Shown here: positions 1-33,990 of the stretch, one piece after another | How the letters are laid out: each line of letters opens with the position of its first letter | How positions within the stretch are numbered: position 1 is the first letter of the stretch | Assembly: GCF_055900595.2 (NCBI RefSeq) | Contig: NZ_CM148325.1 | Length of the DNA: 64,000 bases | Direction: 5' to 3' (one strand) | Program-made: the position numbers and the translations under genes | The notes under the pieces: generated by a model | The model's input: the letters and a program-made list of their open reading frames with translations, nothing else | What the model was told of the DNA's origin: nothing | Database searches by the model: none

Positions 1-882
1 GAGGATTTTTTGAAGAGAAATAATATTCCCCCCATTCATCATAAAATGGGTGGCAAATGTATGCCTCAATACATGAACCGCTTGACCGTCCGGCAAATTA
101 GGCTTAGCCACCTTCAGTTTCAGCCTAAACCATTTATAACTCACCCGAAATAAACGCCCCTCCTTGCGATGTTTTACAAGCCTAACAACATCATCAGAAA
201 CAGGAACAACCCGACGCTTATTATTTTTTGTGAAATTAAATACAACCTTATTACCGATAATATGTTCCCCCATTAGCTGATATGCTTCATTCCAGCGACA
301 GCCTGTAGACAACAAAAGGACAGCCATTCGGTAATAATCTCCCGAACCCTTGCAGATAGAAAGAAACGCACCAATCTCTTCATGATTAAGATAAGCCATC
401 TCTGGGGTTTTTTCCTTGAGGCGAGGAAGCGACAATACAGGGTTACTACCGTGATATTCACCAATCTCTGCCATAGCCTTTAACGCAGCGCTAAACGCAA
501 AAAGATCATGGTTGATTGTAGATGCCTTAACCCCTTGATCGAGACGGCGCGATCTATATTCAGCAACCATGCGTTCATCAATCTCGTACATCATAGGGTC
601 ACCCATATCAAGACAAATACACTGGAGGTTATTCAGTCTACGATTCGCGTAATCCTTGTGACGACCTATCAGTAACCACCACGTCGCAATGAAATCGCTT
701 AAATATCGCTTGTCCAGAAGATTACCGAAAACATCAACAGAAGGGCGATCAGCAAGAACTTCGCGTTCAAATGCTACAGCCAGATTTTTTTTCTCAAACT
801 TCCGACGAATGCGCCTTCCCTTACTTCCGTCGGGTCGAATGTCCACAAAATAGCGACCATCTTCGAGCTTCTTAATTGACAT
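1..882 (-). CDS. int: Tyrosine integrase, P2 Int family (partial; C-terminus beyond window edge)
   Basis: Minus-strand translation from ATG at 880-882 gives MSIKKLEDGRYFVDIRPDGSKGRRIRRKFEKK... and near the edge ...VLRHTFATHFMMNGGNIISLQKIL, which matches the recalled P2 Int sequence. Absent from the ORF track because it has no stop within the window. Confidence 0.85.
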   Translation of the reverse strand, partial: MSIKKLEDGRYFVDIRPDGSKGRRIRRKFEKKNLAVAFEREVLADRPSVDVFGNLLDKRYLSDFIATWWLLIGRHKDYANRRLNNLQCICLDMGDPMMYEIDERMVAEYRSRRLDQGVKASTINHDLFAFSAALKAMAEIGEYHGSNPVLSLPRLKEKTPEMAYLNHEEIGAFLSICKGSGDYYRMAVLLLSTGCRWNEAYQLMGEHIIGNKVVFNFTKNNKRRVVPVSDDVVRLVKHRKEGRLFRVSYKWFRLKLKVAKPNLPDGQAVHVLRHTFATHFMMNGGNIISLQKIL

Positions 883-951
883 AAGAAGACCCTCCAACAG
901 TCCATTCTCCATCTTGAAAACAGATAGAGAAAACGTATTCCTTATAAAGAG

Positions 952-1251
952 TTAACCAGTCTGTTTCCCTGATTGGGGTGACGTTGTTTCGACGTGCCCA
1001 CAGTGTGCGAGAGCCGGGGCTATTTGCCCGTGTTCTGGGTCGATGCGGTCATACATAAACCAATTCTGATACTTATGAAAACGGGGGTGACCAAATATCT
1101 TAATTGCAGATTCCAATGTCATCTTAGATTTGTCACGCTCATAGCCGTGATAGGTTGTGTAATTAAGCCCTACTAAATCAACAAATTGCTGTTTTGTTAG
1201 CCTTTCCGAATCTCGCATGATCGCTAACTTTTCACCTTGAGTATTTGACAT
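952..1251 (-). CDS. C: Immunity repressor, P2 C-like
   Basis: 99 aa, MSNTQGEKLAIMRDSERLTKQQFVDLVG...QIAPALAHCGHVETTSPQSGKQTG; resembles recalled P2 C repressor; sits between int and the early operon as in P2. Confidence 0.8.
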   Translation of the reverse strand: MSNTQGEKLAIMRDSERLTKQQFVDLVGLNYTTYHGYERDKSKMTLESAIKIFGHPRFHKYQNWFMYDRIDPEHGQIAPALAHCGHVETTSPQSGKQTG

Positions 1252-1345
1252 ATTTACGAGTACTCCATATAGTTACGCAAAAACAACATTCCTAGCCTAA
1301 AACGGCAAAACACCGTCAAAGGCCGATTAGGCTAAGCAAGCCTCA
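1252..1345. promoter_or_regulatory. Divergent immunity/early promoter-operator region
   Basis: Intergenic between C (minus) and the early operon (plus); inverted repeat TAGCCTAA ... TTAGGCTA about 22 bp apart, at roughly 1303-1337. Confidence 0.45.
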
Positions 1346-1501
1346 ATGAATGGCAACCTTGGAGTGTATCAAAAAATGGCAAAACAACGAGATTTTGAAC
1401 AAATCACGACACATCAGCATTGCCGTCTCTATCCATTAGACGGCTACATCACGATGAACGTGTGCAAAATGAGTTCAACGCAGGCTGGACGCATACGTGA
1501 T

Positions 1502-1993
1502 ATGAGTCTGAGCGACTTACAACAACAGGAGTTTGTTAGCCCAGAGGAGTTTGCATACATCACGGGGCGCACCTACAAAGCAGCCAAAAACATCATGGAC
1601 CGAAACGAAAGCCTGCTTATTAAGGAATACGCCACGCCAGACGCAACACGACCTAAGCGATTTATCAGACTCCAGCACTACTGGGCCGCAATTATCAACA
1701 ACAAAGCATCGCTGACACCACGCGAGCATCTATTTATCAATGAGATTCGAAACAACAAAACGCTTTACCGCGAGATGATGAAAATCAATCTCAAGATTCG
1801 CGAAGGGCGAGAAGTCTCGAAAAAAAACCAAGATACTCCCATCAATCGCAATCAGCGGCATAACACCAAAAGGAGTTTTCCCATGTGCGACCTGAGCAAA
1901 GCAGAGCTAATTGCAATCATATTGTTTGCCATAGATTTTGGTTTTCTTTTGAGCGGCGCAATTCTCCTTCCTGCAATTAACAGGAAAAATTAA
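1502..1993 (+). CDS. Cox/Apl-like excisionase-regulator with an unusual AT-rich hydrophobic C-terminal extension (start uncertain; ORF track starts at 1346)
   Basis: Segment MSLSDLQQQEFVSPEEFAYITGRTYKAAKNIMDRNE resembles P2 Cox (QEFAKLIGKSTGAVRRMIDKG). The ORF continues in frame through an A8 run (about 1823-1830) into an AT-rich tail encoding a TM-like segment, AELIAIILFAIDFGFLLSGAILLPAI. Confidence 0.4.
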   Translation: MSLSDLQQQEFVSPEEFAYITGRTYKAAKNIMDRNESLLIKEYATPDATRPKRFIRLQHYWAAIINNKASLTPREHLFINEIRNNKTLYREMMKINLKIREGREVSKKNQDTPINRNQRHNTKRSFPMCDLSKAELIAIILFAIDFGFLLSGAILLPAINRKN

Positions 1994-2023
1994 TCACCAC
2001 TGCAAATAACAAGAGCCAACAAC

Positions 2024-2239
2024 ATGACCCCAAGACAAGTATTAATCTCCAAAAATGATGACATATTGCACTTTCAAGTAAAATACATAATAGCCACAAC
2101 AAAGGTAGGAACATCAATCTATATACACTATCAGAATTTCTATCTGGAGAGAGTCTTCGAAACGGAAGGAGAAGCCCAGAAGTTTTTGATACACATAAAA
2201 GATTGCATAGAAGGAAAAATAAGACCAGGGGATCAATAA
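2024..2239 (+). CDS. Hypothetical protein in an AT-rich insert (71 aa)
   Basis: ORF in a stretch of markedly lower GC (by eye) than the flanking phage DNA; no recognised family. Confidence 0.35.
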   Translation: MTPRQVLISKNDDILHFQVKYIIATTKVGTSIYIHYQNFYLERVFETEGEAQKFLIHIKDCIEGKIRPGDQ

Positions 2240-2547
2240 TGCGAAAACATTATTCACAACCATATATCCGTAACAGTGCGCCACGCAGCAATAACCGCTG
2301 GAGCCTGCGCGAAACACACGCAACACCAGGCGGTCACGTTGTAAAACAAACTGGGGAACACACCTGGCTGATTGAGCAGGCTGGACTCGTGATCCACAGA
2401 TGCAACCGCAATCCGTTTACCGGAAACCGCATCTTTGCACTGAGCAGCGGCGACAACCAGTTCGGGCAGGATTTCACGCTACACGAAGCCCTGCGAACTG
2501 CCGACCGCTTAATCGCGGGGCGCAGCTTTCAGCACCCGGATTACTAA
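2239..2547 (+). CDS. Hypothetical early-operon protein (about 102 aa)
   Basis: ORF track 2203..2547 uses a TTG start; an in-frame ATG at 2239 is a more likely start. No recognised family. Confidence 0.4.
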   Translation: MRKHYSQPYIRNSAPRSNNRWSLRETHATPGGHVVKQTGEHTWLIEQAGLVIHRCNRNPFTGNRIFALSSGDNQFGQDFTLHEALRTADRLIAGRSFQHPDY

Positions 2548-2590
2548 AGAAAAGTCGGCTTAATAAGCCCTGAGCCAGTCTTAATAAGAC

Positions 2591-2848
2591 ATGAGAGGCG
2601 ATAAGATGAAAAGAGCCTACAAAGAAATCGCTAACGACATACTTCAGAATTATCACCTAACCCTTGCAAACGAGGGTGTCGCCTATGATGAGCAATCGTT
2701 CCGCGCAATGCAGGGTGGGATTCTTGGGCTGTATATCGCCGCCACAGCCAGCGGCGACCTCGAAGCGCTGGCAGAATTAAAGGTTATCTATCCGAAAGAA
2801 CTTGGCGAAGACCTGATTAAACCCTATCTCATTGAGGAGCTGGCATGA
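2591..2848 (+). CDS. Hypothetical early-operon protein (85 aa; alternative start at 2606)
   Basis: ORF track; GAGAGG Shine-Dalgarno before the ATG at 2606. Confidence 0.45.
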   Translation: MRGDKMKRAYKEIANDILQNYHLTLANEGVAYDEQSFRAMQGGILGLYIAATASGDLEALAELKVIYPKELGEDLIKPYLIEELA

Positions 2849-2970
2849 ATATTCTTATCTCGTGGTTAATTCTCATCCTCGCCATTATTTGCGCGGTGGG
2901 AATCATGCGAATTATTAACGGCATTAAAACCATCGAATCATTATTTACTGGCGACAAGCGCCATAAATAA
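2845..2970 (+). CDS. Small single-pass membrane peptide (41 aa)
   Basis: ATGA start/stop overlap with the upstream ORF; GAGGAG Shine-Dalgarno 5 nt upstream; MNILISWLILILAIICAVGIMRII... is strongly hydrophobic. Below the ORF track size cutoff. Confidence 0.45.
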   Translation: MNILISWLILILAIICAVGIMRIINGIKTIESLFTGDKRHK

Positions 2971-3050
2971 ATAACCGGAAATTACCAGAAAGCAAGAAAA
3001 CATCCGCAACGGCGGAGGGATTCCCTTACGCCTGAAATAAGGAGCAGCGA

Positions 3051-3266
3051 ATGAGTAAACCACTAACCAGCATTGAGCGAAAAATTGTTTTTATGAATGT
3101 GGCAGGCGTGCAGTTCGAAGTGGATAAGCAGGTCATCGTCTCCGAAACGAGATGCCCGGCAGCAGGTGAGCAATGCACCTACCTGACACTGGCAGACGGC
3201 ACGCAAATAACCGCCGTCACCGACACCATTCGCGAGCTTGTGATTATCAGAGGGGTTAAACGATGA
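3051..3266 (+). CDS. Hypothetical protein (71 aa)
   Basis: ORF track; AGGAG Shine-Dalgarno upstream (aaggagcagcgaATG). Confidence 0.5.
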   Translation: MSKPLTSIERKIVFMNVAGVQFEVDKQVIVSETRCPAAGEQCTYLTLADGTQITAVTDTIRELVIIRGVKR

Positions 3267-3475
3267 CCAGCAAATACACCACCAACGCACGCAAGCCAGG
3301 CAAGGAGGCACGTCATCACATTGCCGTTCTGCGCAATCTCATCATGTGCGAAATCGACGACTTTGTGGCGGGACTGGGCCAGCCGGGCGAGCCAGCAACA
3401 CCGGGCGAAATACACAAAGAACTACGCCGCCGCATAGAAAGCGCGGTGGATTACGTCATGAACCCGAACGACTGA
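3263..3475 (+). CDS. Hypothetical protein (70 aa)
   Basis: ORF track; ATGA overlap with the upstream ORF. Confidence 0.45.
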   Translation: MTSKYTTNARKPGKEARHHIAVLRNLIMCEIDDFVAGLGQPGEPATPGEIHKELRRRIESAVDYVMNPND

Positions 3476-3515
3476 CCAGAACGCGAGCGCGCGCCGGATG
3501 ACGCACGCATAACGC

Positions 3516-4001
3516 TTAGCGGGAAGCGCCAACCGTAAGGCTGGCAATGATTTTTTCGGAGAGTGAGAGAGATTCGCGATGATTAAGACCAAGAGCAGCA
3601 CAAGCTTTATTGCGCGCCGGGTTGTCCATGCATTCAAGCACCGGAGAGTCCTGCTTCTCAATTTCCACCAGTCGCGCCAGCAACACCTCCGTGCTGAGAC
3701 CGTCGCTTTCAGTAATCAGGACGTTATAGCGATGAGCCTGTTCTTTTGCAGCCTGAGCGCGTCGCCCAAATTTCCAGGCGATATTGCAGCCACTAAGCAC
3801 AGCCACGATACCACCCAGCAACCAACTGAAATTGCTGTCTGCAAACACAGTAGCCCCAGACGTAAGGATGACAGCATTAATCACCGTATCCATACGGCGG
3901 TTAAACACCTCCGAAATATGTTCAAGCCAGTAACTGTTCCAGAGACGAAACATGACCTCGTGTCGCCGTTCGGCATGATTTTCAGTTGGTTGTCTGTTCA
4001 T
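3516..4001 (-). CDS. Two-transmembrane protein (161 aa), opposite strand to the early operon; candidate superinfection-exclusion or abortive-infection effector
   Basis: ATG at 3999-4001 with GAGGAGGG Shine-Dalgarno upstream; two hydrophobic segments (VINAVILTSGATVFA and FSWLLGGIVAVLSGCNIAW) followed by a charged, helix-prone C-terminus. No confident family match. Confidence 0.55.
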   Translation of the reverse strand: MNRQPTENHAERRHEVMFRLWNSYWLEHISEVFNRRMDTVINAVILTSGATVFADSNFSWLLGGIVAVLSGCNIAWKFGRRAQAAKEQAHRYNVLITESDGLSTEVLLARLVEIEKQDSPVLECMDNPARNKACAALGLNHRESLSLSEKIIASLTVGASR

Positions 4002-4244
4002 TGCGGTTTAACCCTCCTCATCATCTCGCCCCTGCCCTTTTTCAGGCGCGGGAGCCGGTTGCCGTGGCACATGAAATTTATCGCTATCAGACATTTATTT
4101 TTTCCCGTGTGTTGTTGAACAAACTGCCCGCACAGTTTTGACGGAACGGCGGGCGCTTCAAGCGTAACACACCCTTCTTTTCCGGTTGAAGGCGAAAAAA
4201 ACCGGACAGCTACCCGACACAAACCAGACCAGCGGAGAACTGCC

Positions 4245-4799: not shown

Positions 4800-5119
4800 G
4801 CAATCACCATGTACACACAAAAAAACCGCTTGCAACAACAAACCGGAACAGGGTACGCTTCCCCCGCACCTCATAAAACGGGTGTCGGGTTTCGCAGCCT
4901 GCTGACTAGCAAAGCGCACAACCGCGCCAGCGGTTTTTTTGTGCGTACTGTATTGCCACGTCTTTTTCGCACACGAATTATGGCGGGGCGTACGGGGCCG
5001 ACTTCGGTCGGGCCGGGTTCTTTGCTAGCCGGTACTGCGAACCTCGTACGTCTCGCCACCCACAGTTTCGCAGCTCTGGATGGTGAGTTTTTAAAACTTA
5101 CTAGCAAAGAGGCCACACC
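4800..5119 (+). promoter_or_regulatory. Structured intergenic region with repeats and hairpins
   Basis: CTAGCAAAG occurs three times: direct at about 4905 and 5100, inverted (CTTTGCTAG) at about 5022. Also a CCGAC-TTCG-GTCGG hairpin with a UUCG-type loop at about 5008-5021 and a terminator-like CCGCGCCAGCGG plus T7 at about 4922-4940. Confidence 0.4.
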
Positions 5120-5338
5120 ATGGCAAACCGCAAACAGCGCCGCGCTACTGCGGAGCATCACCACGTCCGCGCCCAAATCGACAAACGCCTTTTCCGCGCA
5201 TCACGCGTTGCACGCATCATGCACATCAACATGCTGCATGAACGCAGAGGGGCACTACCGAACACCTATATCGCCTCCGTTTTCAGCTATCTGGCGGACG
5301 ATCTCGCCGAGCTGCAACACCTCATTAACCAGCACTGA
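5120..5338 (+). CDS. Hypothetical protein (72 aa)
   Basis: ORF track; AAAGAGG Shine-Dalgarno 8 nt upstream of the ATG. Confidence 0.5.
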   Translation: MANRKQRRATAEHHHVRAQIDKRLFRASRVARIMHINMLHERRGALPNTYIASVFSYLADDLAELQHLINQH

Positions 5339-5782: not shown

Positions 5783-8272
5783 ATGGAGTTCGTCAGAGAC
5801 TGGCAAAAACCGCGCCCCGCTATCGGGCGCGAAGGCTTACCCGTACCTGAAACCGCACTGGATACCATCCTGAAGTGTTACCGCGCAGACGAAGAGCGCG
5901 CACTGCACGCTGAAGAGCAGGGTCATCCGCTTGCGGGCACAACCATCGGTAACGCGATCGACAAGTGGGAAGGCGCACAGGAGCGCCAGGAAGAGGCCAT
6001 CACGCTCACACAGGAAGCGAGAAGACACCCGCCCACCCTTATTGAGGAAACCCTCAAAGAGCTGGACACCCTGCCCAAGTGGTTGAGGCTGCCGCTGATT
6101 AAGCACCTGAACTTTTTAAGGCGCAAACAGGAGGACGAACAACAGAAAGGCAAGCGCGGCAAGGACACCCGCAAATATGAGCGCTTCCTGAAAAACGGCA
6201 TCCCCGCACGTCTTCGCCGTATTCGTGAGATTAACGCTCGCTTTGCACCGTTAAGTTTTCAGGCCGCTGCCATGCGCGAGAGTCTGGAAGAACTGATCAC
6301 ACTGCCGAACCTGAGCCGTGAACGCATCCAGAAAATAGCCGTACTGCTTGCCAGCGCCGTTAAAATGCATCTTGCCGACGCAATGGACAAGGCCCGCGAA
6401 ATAACAGGGAACGACAAAGACGACAACCTGAACAACTGGCTGATTGCCTACCAGTATATTGGTCGCCGTGTCCTGAAGCTGGGGATCACCCCACCATACT
6501 GGAGCGCCCTTGAACTCCGCCCCGACCGCAGAAGCCCCCCGGACGTGACACTGGTTCCGGGCGCTGTTTTGCGCCTGAACGACGCCGAATGGTGGAATAA
6601 AAAACTTCGCCAGATGCACGACGTCTGGCGTGAGGAACTTTTACGTGCAGCGGGCCTTGTATCCCGCCAGACCTCCGTTTATGTGAGCCGTGAAGCGCTG
6701 GCAGACTTCCGCGAAAAACAGGCCCGTACCCGCGATTTTCTCAAAGCGCACGACGTGGAGAACGAAGACGGCGAACGCATCAGTCTGGAAGATATCTACT
6801 ACGCCAGTACATCCAACCCGCATAACCGCCGCAACGAGATGATGGCGTGCGTTAAGGGAATGGAGCTTATCGCACAGGAACGCGGCGACGTGGCCTTCTT
6901 CGTCACGGTCACAGCCCCGTCTCGTTTTCACAGCGTCACCGACGCAGGCACGCTGAACCCGAAATACAAAGGCGCAACCGTAAAGGACGCCAGCGACTAT
7001 CTGGTTTATAACTTCTTCGCCTCCGCCCGCAAACTCATCAAAAAAGAGAAGCGGGGCTGGTACGGCATTCGCACCGTGGAGCCTCACCACGACGGCACGC
7101 CCCACTGGCACATGCTGGTATTCACAAGCCCTGAGAACGAAGAGCGCATCACGGAAATCATGTGCAATGCCGCCATTCGCGAAGACCGGGCAGAGCTGGG
7201 CGACGACATCACCCCGCGCTTCAAGTGCGAGAAGATAGATCCCGAAAAAGGCACGCCAACCAGCTACATCGCCACCTACATAGGCAAAGGCATTGACGCC
7301 GCTGCATTCGGCGACACGGATCCAAAAACAGGTAAACCGCCCGTTGACCACGAAAGCGGAAAACCTATGGCGGACACCGTGGAAAACGCCGTCGCCTGGG
7401 CGCGCCTGCATCGCATTCGCCAGTTCCAGTTCTTTGGCCTCCCTTCCCGTCAGGTGTGGCGTGAGTTCCGCCGCCTTGCCGGACAAATGGCACGCAACCC
7501 GAAGGGGCCGCAGGCACTGACCAACCCCAAAGCCGACGCCCTCCTTGTTGCAGCCGATACGGGGTGTTTTGCCAGCTACATCATGCATCAGGGCGGTGTG
7601 CTCATTCCCCGTAGTGAATATCTGGCCCGCACAGCCTACGTCACCGCAGAAGAGCCGAACAATTACAGCGAATTCCCCGAGCGCATTTACGGTATCCGCA
7701 TGCCGGAACTGGGGGAGGACTTCACGTTATGCACCCACCCGGAAGAGTGGAAAATCGTCAGAAAGGAACCGGAACCAGACAACCGCACGGGCGAGGGTTT
7801 TGACCTTCAGGGCGGCCCCGCCGCCCCTTGGACTCGTGGCAATAACTGTCACCCTGACGAAAAAACAACCAACAACAGCACACAAACAGAACAGTCAGAG
7901 TGGGCAAAACTGCCCCCCTTACCCCCATCGTCGGACGGTTTTGTGAGCTGGTTTAAGTCGCTTAAGAGGCCGGACAGGAAAAAACTACAAAGATTGCTCA
8001 AAAAACGCACCGAAGAGAGTCGCCAGAACGCCAGCGGCGGCACCGACACACCCACCGACACCATTAACCTGGGCGTTGTGCTGCCGGAACTGCCGGAAAT
8101 CGTGCAAGTCCGCCGCGATCTGGAAGCGCTGGGCGCGGACTTCCCCGAAGCAATGGCCCATTCCGTCTTTATGGGTGCCCGCGTTCGTCTGGGTGACGGT
8201 CGCACCGTTCACCGCGACGAGCAGACCGGGCGCATCACCGTCACCAGTCTGCAACCGGAGGCGAAACCATGA
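5783..8272 (+). CDS. A: Replication initiation endonuclease, P2 gpA family
   Basis: 829-aa ORF at the position of P2 gene A (between the early genes and the portal); large rolling-circle-type replication protein. Confidence 0.75.
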   Translation: MEFVRDWQKPRPAIGREGLPVPETALDTILKCYRADEERALHAEEQGHPLAGTTIGNAIDKWEGAQERQEEAITLTQEARRHPPTLIEETLKELDTLPKWLRLPLIKHLNFLRRKQEDEQQKGKRGKDTRKYERFLKNGIPARLRRIREINARFAPLSFQAAAMRESLEELITLPNLSRERIQKIAVLLASAVKMHLADAMDKAREITGNDKDDNLNNWLIAYQYIGRRVLKLGITPPYWSALELRPDRRSPPDVTLVPGAVLRLNDAEWWNKKLRQMHDVWREELLRAAGLVSRQTSVYVSREALADFREKQARTRDFLKAHDVENEDGERISLEDIYYASTSNPHNRRNEMMACVKGMELIAQERGDVAFFVTVTAPSRFHSVTDAGTLNPKYKGATVKDASDYLVYNFFASARKLIKKEKRGWYGIRTVEPHHDGTPHWHMLVFTSPENEERITEIMCNAAIREDRAELGDDITPRFKCEKIDPEKGTPTSYIATYIGKGIDAAAFGDTDPKTGKPPVDHESGKPMADTVENAVAWARLHRIRQFQFFGLPSRQVWREFRRLAGQMARNPKGPQALTNPKADALLVAADTGCFASYIMHQGGVLIPRSEYLARTAYVTAEEPNNYSEFPERIYGIRMPELGEDFTLCTHPEEWKIVRKEPEPDNRTGEGFDLQGGPAAPWTRGNNCHPDEKTTNNSTQTEQSEWAKLPPLPPSSDGFVSWFKSLKRPDRKKLQRLLKKRTEESRQNASGGTDTPTDTINLGVVLPELPEIVQVRRDLEALGADFPEAMAHSVFMGARVRLGDGRTVHRDEQTGRITVTSLQPEAKP

Positions 8273-9558: not shown

Positions 9559-9614
9559 TCTGATATTTTTGATAACGTTGACCGGCTCATTAGCAAAAAA
9601 GCAAAGAGGAAAAC

Positions 9615-10001
9615 ATGAAAGCCCGTATCGGGATCATCCCGGAAAAAGCCCTGCGCCAGCACCTGATTGATATTGCCAGAGGGAAGCGAAAACCACAGCC
9701 CGACGAGCCAAAGGTATGGTTTTCATCCATCAATGCGGCAGGCCAGACGCTGAGCAATGAAAATATCGCCCTTCTGCGTCTTATGAATGAGGAGAAGCCG
9801 CAGACCATGACCGCACTTGCGGAGTTATCCGGCAGAAAACTGAGCAACCTGTCTGTAACCCTGAAAATGCTGAGCAGCTACGGTTTTGTCAGTCTGGAAA
9901 AGAAAGGGAATACTGTACACCCGAAAGCACTTTTTACCGATTTTGAAATCATCGTTGATCCGTCCGTGGGTTCAGTACATCGCGCCACCGCCCGGCCCTG
10001 A
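9615..10001 (+). CDS. Small winged-HTH-like DNA-binding protein (128 aa)
   Basis: ORF track; AAGAGGA Shine-Dalgarno; central segment MTALAELSGRKLSNLSVTLKMLSSYGFVSL resembles a wHTH recognition region. Confidence 0.5.
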   Translation: MKARIGIIPEKALRQHLIDIARGKRKPQPDEPKVWFSSINAAGQTLSNENIALLRLMNEEKPQTMTALAELSGRKLSNLSVTLKMLSSYGFVSLEKKGNTVHPKALFTDFEIIVDPSVGSVHRATARP

Positions 10002-10013
10002 AGTGCGCAATAA

Positions 10014-10040
10014 ACAGCCCCGTTCGGGGCTGTTATTTAT
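10014..10040. terminator. Bidirectional intrinsic terminator
   Basis: CAGCCCCGTTCGGGGCTG hairpin flanked by T-rich sequence on both strands, between convergent genes. Confidence 0.55.
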
Positions 10041-10411
10041 TCCAGAATCAGCTGTTCAGGTGTGCAGCCGTACAGTCTGGCAAGGCGCTCAATATTTGCC
10101 CTGCGCGGGCGTTCTGTTCTTTCGAATTCGGACACGGTAGCCTGCCTGATACCCAGCGCATCCGCCACCTGCTTTTGCGTCATTCCGCGATAGATTCGCC
10201 ACGCCGCCTGCATGGTGCAGCCACGTTCCGAGAGGATGTTGACCACCTCGTTGGGATACAGCGTATCAGGCGATGCACTCGGTTCGTTCTGGACGTCCTC
10301 GTAGAGTTCGTCAAGGTCGCTGTCTCCTGCCAGTTTTTCAAACAACGCCACTGGCAGAATGACGGATACCCTGTTACCCGCACCGTCAGTAATAAACTGA
10401 ATCTGACTCAT
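10037..10411 (-). CDS. HigA-like antitoxin, XRE-family HTH (124 aa)
   Basis: C-terminal HTH (MTQKQVADALGIRQATVSEFERTERPRRANIERLARLYGCTPEQL); immediately downstream of a RelE/ParE-like gene. Confidence 0.65.
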   Translation of the reverse strand: MSQIQFITDGAGNRVSVILPVALFEKLAGDSDLDELYEDVQNEPSASPDTLYPNEVVNILSERGCTMQAAWRIYRGMTQKQVADALGIRQATVSEFERTERPRRANIERLARLYGCTPEQLILE

Positions 10412-16878: not shown

Positions 16879-17661
16879 ATGCTGACACCGGCACAGGCTC
16901 ATTTCCAGCGCGTGATGGCTTTACGGGCAGGAACGGCAGCAGAAAACGAGGATATCGTGGCCCGCACGGCTCATGAGCAGGTCCTTCACCGTCTGCGCCT
17001 GGCACAGCAACGCATAAAGGGCGTCCAGGCAAAAGCGGCAAAGGCCGCGCTCAAGCGTGAAATGCTGCCGGGTTTTGCAGGCTGGATAGACGGCACGCTG
17101 GAAGCCGACGGCGGACAGCAGGATGAGGTGATAGCCACACTCATGGTGTGGGCCGTGGACTGTGGCGACCTGGCGCTTGCACTGCGCATCGGGGATTATG
17201 TGGTTCGCCACAACCTCACGATGCCTGACAACTTCGGGCGTACGGCAGCCACGGTACTGACCGAGGAAATCTGCAACCCTGTTCTGACACAGGCCGGAAC
17301 GGATGCACACGCCGATTTGTCCGGCTACATCGAACCGCTGGACACCCTCTGGCAAATTGTCGCGAACCGGGACATGCCCGATGAGGTCCGCGCCAAGCTG
17401 TGCAAGGCATGCGCCTTTGCCCGTCGTGGCCTGACCGATGCCGACAGCATGGCGGTGAGTCTGAAGCTGTTCCGTGAGGCAATGCACCTTAACCCGAATG
17501 CGGGGGTAAAACGTGAGATTGCCACGCTTTCACGGGCCCTGAAAAAGGCCGGACAGGATGAAGCCGCTGCCGCACAGGAGCCTGCGGCACAGAAAGATAC
17601 AACCAGAGAACAGACCACGACGCCGAAGGCGAAAGCGAAAGCGAAGGCGAAACGTGGTTAA
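16879..17661 (+). CDS. M: Terminase small (endonuclease) subunit, P2 gpM family
   Basis: 260 aa at the M position; lysine/alanine-rich C-terminal tail. Confidence 0.75.
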   Translation: MLTPAQAHFQRVMALRAGTAAENEDIVARTAHEQVLHRLRLAQQRIKGVQAKAAKAALKREMLPGFAGWIDGTLEADGGQQDEVIATLMVWAVDCGDLALALRIGDYVVRHNLTMPDNFGRTAATVLTEEICNPVLTQAGTDAHADLSGYIEPLDTLWQIVANRDMPDEVRAKLCKACAFARRGLTDADSMAVSLKLFREAMHLNPNAGVKREIATLSRALKKAGQDEAAAAQEPAAQKDTTREQTTTPKAKAKAKAKRG

Positions 17662-29571: not shown

Positions 29572-29621
29572 GAATAAAACCTCAAATCAGGGGGCGACGC
29601 CACGCGCCGCCGTGGAAAACA

Positions 29622-32974: not shown

Positions 32975-33990
32975 AATAATCAGGTTGAGAGGACATCATA
33001 AGGCAAGTAGATTAACGGCAGATACTTTCCCGCAACCACGGGCAAGTATTTAATTATCCATGATGAAATATGACCTAAATTGTTTTTTGCCCGCCGGAAA
33101 GCGGGCATTTTTTTATTCTTTTGTGGTTATGGGGTCATCAGGAACCACGTGCAGATTATATTTTTGTTTTTTTGGCGTTCCTCCGGCAGCAACGAGTTCA
33201 TCAATAAGACACTGACACGCCTGAACATCCCGGGCATGTCTTAGTTTCACCTTTATTGATTTAACCTTATCCTCACCGGAGGAGAAATGCAGTTCAATCT
33301 CAATATCGTTTCTTCGGAACAATCTCATACGCCCCCCTGAACATATCAGAAATGCTAGTATCGAAAAATGAGAAAACAGTTAGACAGGAGAAACATATTA
33401 ACACAAATCATTTATACCTATAGATGAAATTATAATTTCATTCATGAATATGATAGATAACTATATTGTGAACAAAATGAAAAATGGCTAAATTAAAAAT
33501 GGGCATGGAGGAATGCCTCGTAATCAGTAATACATGATCCATACTTCCTTGTTTTGCCCGCCGGAAAGCGGGCATTTTTTTGGCGGTTACCATCGCCTCA
33601 CCTTCCTGGTTCACACAAAGCAACCCTGATTTTCCATGAAAACTTCAGGGTTGAGCCAAAAGCACAAAGACAGTAGATTAACCAAGGGTACCCGCCACCT
33701 GCCAACAGGAACGGTATCCAGTACGTATTAATGACTGACAATTCACATTGCTGTTTTGCCCGCCAGAAGGTGGGCATTTTTTTGGCAGTTATCATGGACG
33801 CACCTTCATGACACATATTAAGCAGACCTGATTTTTCCATGAAAAATTCATGGTTGAGACAAAAGCACAAAAACAGTAGATTAACCACGGGTGCCTGCCA
33901 CCTGACAACAGGAAGGGGTGTCCATTATCCATGATATACAAACGAAAAGTCTTGTCTTTTGCCCGCCGTTGCGCGGGCTTTTTTTTTGCC
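32975..33990. repeat. Array of diverged att-like repeat units, each ending in a GC hairpin plus T-tract
   Basis: Hairpin GCCCGCC-loop-GCGGGC plus T-run at 33089-33115, 33556-33582, 33768-33792 and 33961-33987. Units share GGTTGAG...AGTAGATTAACC...CCACGGG...TTATCCATGAT; the first unit directly follows ogr. Confidence 0.6.
33113..33328 (-). CDS. Hypothetical small protein (71 aa)
   Basis: ORF track; G-rich Shine-Dalgarno-like sequence upstream; AT-rich promoter-like region with palindrome ATGAAATTATAATTTCAT upstream on the minus strand. Confidence 0.35.
   Translation of the reverse strand: MRLFRRNDIEIELHFSSGEDKVKSIKVKLRHARDVQACQCLIDELVAAGGTPKKQKYNLHVVPDDPITTKE

Follow-up and report, generated by a model that had tools for sequence, protein, structure and literature searches.

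Probable one-base contraction of an adenine run that joins a Cox-type regulator gene to a membrane-peptide gene in a P2-like prophage of Escherichia coli

The prophage and its early operon

The window, which here means the whole 64-kb stretch of DNA analysed, includes the left end, with int, C and the early operon, of a P2-like (Peduoviridae-type) prophage that is integrated between glsA/ybaT and copA in Escherichia coli and spans window position 1 to ~34,400. Near-identical prophages in complete E. coli genomes occupy the same glsA/ybaT-copA site and have the usual P2 late genes. The features that concern us are as follows.

Window start to 882, (-) strand: integrase gene, cut by the window start
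952..1251, (-) strand: P2 C-type immunity repressor gene, 99 aa, divergent from the early operon; PHROG 147, transcriptional regulator, E 3.6e-32
1245..1273, (+) strand: putative Pe-like early promoter from a consensus scan, TTGACA-17-TATAGT, 11/12 matches
1376..1819, (+) strand: Cox-position gene, conserved part (42-aa N-terminal extension, winged helix-turn-helix, C-terminal helices)
1820..1827, (+) strand: A8 homopolymer, site of the one-base deletion; A9 in ~99% of copies, A10 in a few
1828..1882, (+) strand: linker, read in the wrong frame in the A8 allele, NQDTPINRNQRHNTKRSFP; contains the A9 stop TAA 1861-1863 (out of frame) and the ribosome-binding site AAGGAG 1870-1875
1883..1993, (+) strand: single-pass membrane peptide gene, 36 aa; normally separate, here the C-terminus of the fusion
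2024..2239, (+) strand: 71-aa AT-rich ORF, 34.7% GC; its stop overlaps the DUF4761 start (TAATG 2237-2241)
2239..2547, (+) strand: DUF4761 gene, Pfam PF15958, E 2.6e-46; first conserved-backbone gene to the right of the slot
5783-8272: gpA-like replication endonuclease gene, which closes the rightward early operon

The order of int (-), C (-) and the Cox-position gene (+), with the Pe-like promoter at 1245-1273, is the layout of annotated P2. In P2 the -35 element of Pe lies inside the start of C, and likewise the Pe-like promoter overlaps the start of the repressor gene here. Near-identical E. coli prophages carry a counterpart of the C-type repressor, annotated there as a helix-turn-helix protein.

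In its host flank the window agrees at 99.9% with ten complete E. coli genomes; most others match at 95-99%, and strain CS5L at 95%. The matches at 99.9% show that the host belongs to a less common lineage of E. coli; a non-E. coli Escherichia host was considered and is ruled out by the same ten genomes. Megablast of 900-2600 against the phage collection gave no match, and tblastn of the open reading frame described below gave a sole match in phages, to Yersinia phage vB_YenM_42.18 at 33% identity. No RNA family was found by an Rfam scan of 1200-2600.

An open reading frame that crosses an adenine run

As read in the window, a single open reading frame extends from ATG 1346 to TAA 1991-1993, with ATG 1376 and ATG 1502 in the same frame. 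Inside it lies an A8 homopolymer at 1820-1827, the only A run of at least eight in the 64-kb window, where A and T runs of this length together number five. A preliminary description had rightly noticed the run, and placed it about 1823-1830; the true coordinates are three bases further left. It had also described an in-frame crossing of the A8 run, a hydrophobic, transmembrane-like end and an AAGGAG-ATG proper to that end, and all of these are found in the sequence. AAGGAG at 1870-1875 is followed, with a spacing of 7 nt, by ATG 1883-1885, and the final 36 codons of the open reading frame read MCDLSKAELIAIILFAIDFGFLLSGAILLPAINRKN. The best 19-residue Kyte-Doolittle mean of this segment is 2.44, which is typical of a membrane-spanning segment.

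Extent of the Cox-position gene

Homologues of the Cox-position protein, at 59-64% identity, begin MT(K/E)(R/Q)RD, which aligns to MAKQRD at ATG 1376. Their upstream sequence has the same GAGGAG...ATG context, they have no ATG at 1346, and among them synonymous changes are as many in residues 1-42 as in the core. The conserved start taken from the homologues is therefore ATG 1376, and not the start at 1502 that had been assumed at first. In the A9 form, described below, the gene extends from 1376 to TAA 1861-1863, encodes 162 aa and is the first of the early operon.

Conservation among homologues ends near ...KINLKIREGRE, just before the A run. Beyond this point the homologue tails are unrelated and vary in length, with totals of 157-175 aa. 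In an AF2 model, built on a shallow alignment of six sequences (mean pLDDT 72.9), the last helix covers residues 128-150, and residues 151-162, directly past it, have pLDDT below 50. The last 11 codons thus form an unconserved, predicted-disordered, lysine-rich tail that holds the A9 run. Given where the last helix ends in the model, a frameshift at the run would replace only this predicted disordered tail. From the unrelated tails of the homologues and the low AF2 pLDDT, the tail of the Cox-position protein appears dispensable.

The family is tiny. An exhaustive profile search of 1.84 billion proteins at E <= 1e-3 found 14 representatives, too few for a deeper alignment or a better model. Its conserved 42-aa N-terminal extension bears an HxHC...C motif.

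Relationship to Cox

The gene had been called Cox-like in the preliminary description. This designation holds only in the sense of remote homology and of gene position. The Pfam model PF10743 Phage_Cox does not match either form of the protein, the fused one of 215 aa or the one of 162 aa, even at E <= 1-5. Nothing significant came from PHROG or NCBIfam, and a match to an 'FtsZ inhibitor' at E 0.1 was dismissed as noise. Among distant members of the family, P0043 has a weak match to the Pfam model (E 0.021) and P0049 passes it at E 2.8e-9, and the latter links both families transitively.

Alignment by hhalign with P2 Cox and the Cox of strain TUM1886 gave a probability of 59.5% and a pairwise E of 9e-5, with residues 52-89 placed against Cox 10-47. 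An hmmsearch against PDB sequences listed 4LHF (P2 Cox) at E 1.7, which is below noise matches to ribosomal L36; its register, query 53-91 against Cox 11-48, is nearly that of hhalign. P2 Cox is a winged helix-turn-helix protein of b1-a1-T-a2-b2-L-b3-a3-a4 topology (PMC3936717), and the strand-helix-turn-helix-strand-loop-strand-helices order in the AF2 model is the published P2 Cox order (PMC3936717). The best structural matches of the model are excisionases and Cox.

Compared with P2 Cox (PDB 4LHF) and the winged-helix recombination directionality factors lambda Xis, Pukovnik Xis, Tn916 Xis and RdfS, the protein has its helix-turn-helix placed in the same register by the tentative profile alignments, and like P2 Cox it is encoded by the first early-operon gene, divergent from the C repressor beside int. 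It differs in length, 162 aa against the 91 aa of P2 Cox, in the 42-aa N-terminal extension and longer C-terminal helices and, in the A8 allele, in a C-terminal transmembrane extension that P2 Cox does not have. A closer parallel in architecture is WP_001206784.1, a 173-aa 'Cox family DNA-binding protein' of TUM1886 and ECCNB12-2. It has the same gene position and a similar length, it likewise extends a Cox core at both termini, and it too is followed by a small membrane-protein gene. Unlike the protein described here, it matches Phage_Cox (E 1.5e-8) and belongs with a different immunity module; the gene after it encodes a 68-aa two-TM protein and not the 36-aa peptide, and it was missed by the ORF-wide tblastn.

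The protein can be classified, with moderate confidence, as a divergent long-form regulator of the Cox/Xis winged-helix type. In the rest of the early operon no further excisionase-like gene came to light. By its position, the protein would repress the lysogenic promoter and direct excision as P2 Cox does. A search for cox-box-like repeats compared the intergenic region between C and cox with the att region beside int: the two have no 8-mer in common, and neither contains a 7-mer at least three times; the family's own recognition sequence may differ.

The membrane peptide and the variable slot

The 36-aa peptide at the end of the open reading frame has stand-alone relatives. Homologues of 35 aa were found by tblastn in the cultured P2-like phages P88_4B11 (gp42) and PhiR44_2 at 46-49% identity, with the sequence MCGMDKLDLMLIVILSINFGYLLSGAILMCGGKRK. 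In both phages the order is cox (95 aa), a 68-aa two-TM gene, the 35-aa gene and then DUF4761. The two proteins, YP_009877431.1 of Escherichia virus P88_4B11 and XSB42690.1 of PhiR44_2, align over 35 residues to 1883-1990, and they share with the 36-aa peptide the MC...FG.LLSGAIL...RK pattern, the size, the location between cox and DUF4761 and a low GC content. In contrast to the A8 allele, they stand alone after the 68-aa TM gene and are not fused to cox. The 36-aa peptide is thus, on the evidence of these homologues, an independent and conserved gene of P2-like phages. It is not detectably related to the 68-aa TM protein, with which BLASTP gave no alignment.

The peptide gene and the 71-aa ORF behind it fill a stretch of deviant composition, as the preliminary description had held. 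When measured, 1864-2238 has 37.3% GC, where the prophage as a whole averages 55.2% (z = -3.0, within the lowest 0.8% of equal-sized windows) and is among the two lowest-GC places of the 64 kb; the peptide gene (1883-1993) alone has 38.7%. The equivalent small genes in P88_4B11 and PhiR44_2 are similarly low, at 39-42% GC.

DUF4761 follows the slot in all related prophages examined, and the contents of the slot differ. In related prophages at the same attachment site, the interval from cox to DUF4761 is 0 nt at locus L008 and 214-996 nt with different genes at L014, L011, L002 and L012. The 68-aa TM gene fills it at L011, L014 and L002; two unrelated genes, of 117 aa and 155 aa, are found at L012, and at L016 the 71-aa ORF is the sole occupant, behind a 93-aa Cox-position gene. 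The 71-aa ORF itself is truncated in TUM1886 and absent at L008. The exact 71-aa protein occurs on 77 contigs, and strain 23CRST011 (L016), whose immunity module is different, has at this position a homologue that is 45% identical over the full length. Otherwise the homologue search found only near-identical proteins, and tblastn in phages gave a best E of 0.09.

The 71-aa ORF had been labelled a moron. In its classical sense this label does not hold: a scan of 1864-2240 for promoter-like and terminator-like sites on the + strand gave none within the slot, the stop of the ORF overlaps the DUF4761 start, and its homologue spans immunity modules. Phage morons and cargo slots share with this stretch small AT-rich genes at a position that is empty or otherwise filled in related phages; unlike morons, the genes here have no promoter or terminator of their own detected and lie inside the early operon with a stop-start overlap. 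Since it has no such signals of its own, 1864-2238 counts as accessory cargo, carried in a variable early-operon slot, and not as a classical moron. The slot genes (the peptide and the 71-aa ORF) would be transcribed from Pe.

Alleles of the adenine run

The same DNA is found at 99.8-99.9% identity in five complete E. coli genomes, all of chicken or chicken-meat isolates. In all five the run is A9 and there are two separate genes, the first of which ends 19 nt before the ATG of the peptide. Its product ends ...EVSKKKPRYSHQSQSAA, with the TAA at window 1861-1863, and the 36-codon open reading frame stands alone; the C-terminus of the A9 translation is ...SKKKPRYSHQSQSAA, followed by the stop. 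An alignment with CS5L over 961 bases has one difference, A9 versus A8 here, and across window 1-4123 the run length is the sole difference from CS5L of any kind.

Allele frequencies were obtained by exact-protein look-ups in ~15 billion proteins and counted as contigs.

A9, 172-aa call: 348 contigs
A9, 162-aa call: 541 contigs
A9, other calls: a few smaller sets of contigs
(A9) separate 36-aa peptide: 345 contigs, plus variant alleles
A8, 215-aa fusion: 5 contigs
A10, product ...SKKKTKILPSIAISGITPKGVFPCAT: 3 contigs

A9 products together account for ~900 contigs, and the genes are separate in ~99% of sequenced copies. A fusion set against so many separate copies is either an ordinary rare variant or an assembly error. 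The read-through appears, from comparison of these sequences, to be a rare one-base-deletion allele of a two-gene arrangement.

The allele frequencies also bear on the first reading of the locus, by which a recently acquired AT-rich insert, consisting of the peptide and a moron, had been joined stably to the excisionase gene, giving a new long protein. The low GC of 1864-2238, the polymorphism of the slot among related prophages and the continuous reading frame in the window are what such an insertion would give. Against it are the two-gene form in nearly all copies, the peptide and 68-aa TM genes as long-standing, separately annotated residents of cultured P2-like phages, the slot without promoter or terminator of its own, and the 71-aa ORF with its DUF4761 overlap and its conservation across immunity types. 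Relatives that encode the same long Cox-like protein with a conserved C-terminus, which the preliminary description had said would speak against such an acquired insert, were not found. What survives of the AT-rich insert is a slot that is compositionally deviant and variable among related prophages; the stable fused architecture does not survive. The reading of an acquired stable insert is largely refuted by the A9 relatives, and hardly any weight can be given to it.

Origin of the fusion

Slippage at the A8 run had been proposed together with the insert, and this part of the proposal is partly borne out: the fusion does arise at the run, and the change from A9 to A8 is the sole change from the two-gene form. 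The explanation that we favour, and consider probable, is that the fusion is a replication-slippage allele in which the Cox-type gene and the membrane-peptide gene, otherwise separate, have become one. Replication slippage makes runs of nine A hypermutable (PMC1088944), and one A would have been lost from A9, most likely via strand slippage in DNA replication. With the A lost, translation would continue in the +1 frame, miss the normal stop, cross the ribosome-binding site of the next gene and read the peptide gene in frame. The predicted product is a Cox-like protein that keeps its folded part intact and continues through a basic linker of 19 residues into a transmembrane helix at the C-terminus. 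The 36-aa peptide would probably still be made separately from its intact AAGGAG-ATG. As far as the sequence allows a judgement, the fusion is probably neutral to mildly harmful.

An assembly or sequencing artefact, by which the genome is truly A9, the A8 is an under-call of the homopolymer and there is no fusion gene, is possible but less likely. The difference is a lone single-base homopolymer difference in 4.1 kb; A8 (5 contigs) and A10 (3 contigs) each make up ~0.3-0.6% of the ~900 contigs, as sporadic error gives; and the fused product is without a conserved counterpart. On the other hand, the comparison with CS5L displays no general pattern of homopolymer error. There are 0 indels in 6.6 kb of host flank, and indels elsewhere are few and mostly within diverged DNA. 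Moreover, A8 recurs in at least three other assemblies, GCA_043978215.1, GCA_053911185.1 and GCA_002546125.1. The A8 assemblies represent two host backgrounds, L005 versus L006 and L007, which are separated by 37 SNPs in the ~1.4 kb ybaT-glsA flank; despite these flank SNPs the left end of the prophage is identical in L005, L006 and L007. Taken together, the balance leans appreciably, not overwhelmingly, to the replication-slippage allele over the assembly artefact.

Programmed slippage or phase variation

A further proposal is that the A9/A8 tract is a functional slippery site, used for programmed transcriptional slippage or phase variation. Some of the cells, or some of the transcripts, would in that case yield a membrane-anchored fusion of Cox and the peptide, e.g. 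as a switch between an excisable and a locked prophage. The dominant allele has exactly nine A, and it is at nine that many bacterial genomes begin to show selection against slippage-prone runs; Thermus dnaX uses a run of this length (PMC1088944). From the run into the peptide gene no stop codon interrupts the +1 frame, isolates differ in run length, with A8, A9 and A10 all present, and A8 is found in two host backgrounds and hence may be transmissible. Thermus dnaX, Shigella mxiE and IS elements (9A/9T; Baranov et al. 2005, PMC1088944) have in common with this locus nine A in a row on the coding strand, close to the 3' end of the gene, and as in those systems a one-base change in length switches the C-terminal frame.

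Unlike the known slippage sites, the run and the trans-frame product here are not conserved, there is no sign of use, and the change is in the DNA. Homologues have A6-A7 runs or none, in unrelated tails, and the A run can be seen as a by-product of codon choice in a KKK tail. The frame offset to the downstream gene varies, being +1 here and at L011 and +2 at L014 and L002. An open stretch of 18 codons in the linker frame has a chance expectation of ~40%, (61/64)^18, and the RNA downstream of the run is without a stimulatory structure (fold z = -0.53). On A runs, slippage by the RNA polymerase of E. coli is poor and needs more than seven (PMC6260861). Both the programmed use of the tract and a switch of this kind are considered very unlikely. 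A -1 ribosomal frameshift on A_AAA_AAA was also tried and rejected; it yields the A10-type frame, ...KKKTKILPSIAISGITPKGVFPCAT and a stop, and not the frame of the peptide, and there is no downstream structure.

Were the slippery-site proposal true, loss of an A, in DNA or in transcripts, would make a soluble excision and switch regulator into a tail-anchored membrane protein. Such a regulator would be taken off the DNA with the prophage locked in, or the lysis-lysogeny switch would be coupled to the membrane peptide, and A8 in two host backgrounds would represent a transmissible alternative state and not noise.

Significance

A one-base contraction of a homopolymer together with a variable cargo slot is ordinary biology and will not surprise a phage specialist. 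The locus does carry a caution for annotation: a 215-aa 'hypothetical protein' of this type represents two genes joined by a one-base change in a homopolymer, and not a new domain architecture. It also brings to light a small, unannotated family of long-form Cox-position proteins with an HxHC...C extension that Pfam, PHROGs and NCBIfam miss. In P2-like prophages of E. coli, tiny membrane proteins (36, 68 and 35 aa) turn up repeatedly in the variable slot that separates cox from DUF4761. If the A8 allele is real, it would provide a natural test of the role of the regulator's C-terminal tail in prophage excision.

The Cox-position gene and its leader

The protein encoded by the first gene of the early operon, probably a divergent long-form Cox/Xis-type regulator, carries a 42-residue N-terminal extension (ITTHQHCR.YPLDG......CKM, encoded at 1376-1501) that is conserved across its family. 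P2 Cox has no counterpart of this extension. A β-hairpin is predicted within it (AF2, low confidence), and the His/Cys pattern might bind metal. The leader of the gene displays an 8 bp perfect inverted repeat, TAGCCTAA (1293-1300) and TTAGGCTA (1327-1334), which is read from the sequence and lies between the Pe-like promoter on one side and the ATG at 1376 on the other. This repeat could act as an operator or form an RNA hairpin.

Comparison with the CS5L prophage

In this part of the prophage, the window aligns with the near-identical prophage of E. coli strain CS5L from 9553 rightward, and the alignment is initially rich in mismatches. In CS5L, two gene pairs are annotated as cargo located after the replication gene, together at locus L004 9812-10526 (window about 9600-10300):

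RelE-family toxin and HTH antitoxin pair
DUF6516/transcriptional-regulator pair

At position 17629 the window has one more GCGAAA hexamer repeat unit than CS5L, and at 29590 it has G5 vs. G4, in the region of the tape-measure gene, which the CS5L annotation treats as an incomplete pseudogene. Close to the right end of the prophage, 33050-33400 has the second lowest GC content in the window (about 36%) and contains a small open reading frame:

33113-33328, minus strand, 71-amino-acid open reading frame

This is probably the hypothetical protein annotated in CS5L immediately after ogr.

A small hydrophobic open reading frame and an antisense immunity module in the early region

Directly 3′ of the DUF4754-like gene is a tiny hydrophobic open reading frame:

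2845-2970, 41 amino acids, MNILISWLILILAIICAVGIMRIINGIK...

Its counterpart is annotated as a hypothetical protein of 37-41 amino acids in every relative examined, and the early operon therefore contains several conserved mini membrane proteins.

Further downstream, the following features are found:

4853-4905, c4 a1/b1 target, weak match
4866-4940, isrK RNA (Rfam, 63.2 bits)
4976-5063, C4 antisense RNA (Rfam, 82.8 bits, E 8.7e-16)
5120-5338, after both RNAs, 72-amino-acid "derepression protein" (Pfam Derepression, PHROG 3688)

The 72-amino-acid protein matches PHROG 3688 with an E-value of 2e-32 and Pfam Derepression with an E-value of 4e-6, slightly under the cut-off. The segment 4853-5338 is a P1/P7-type antisense immunity module within a P2-like early region.
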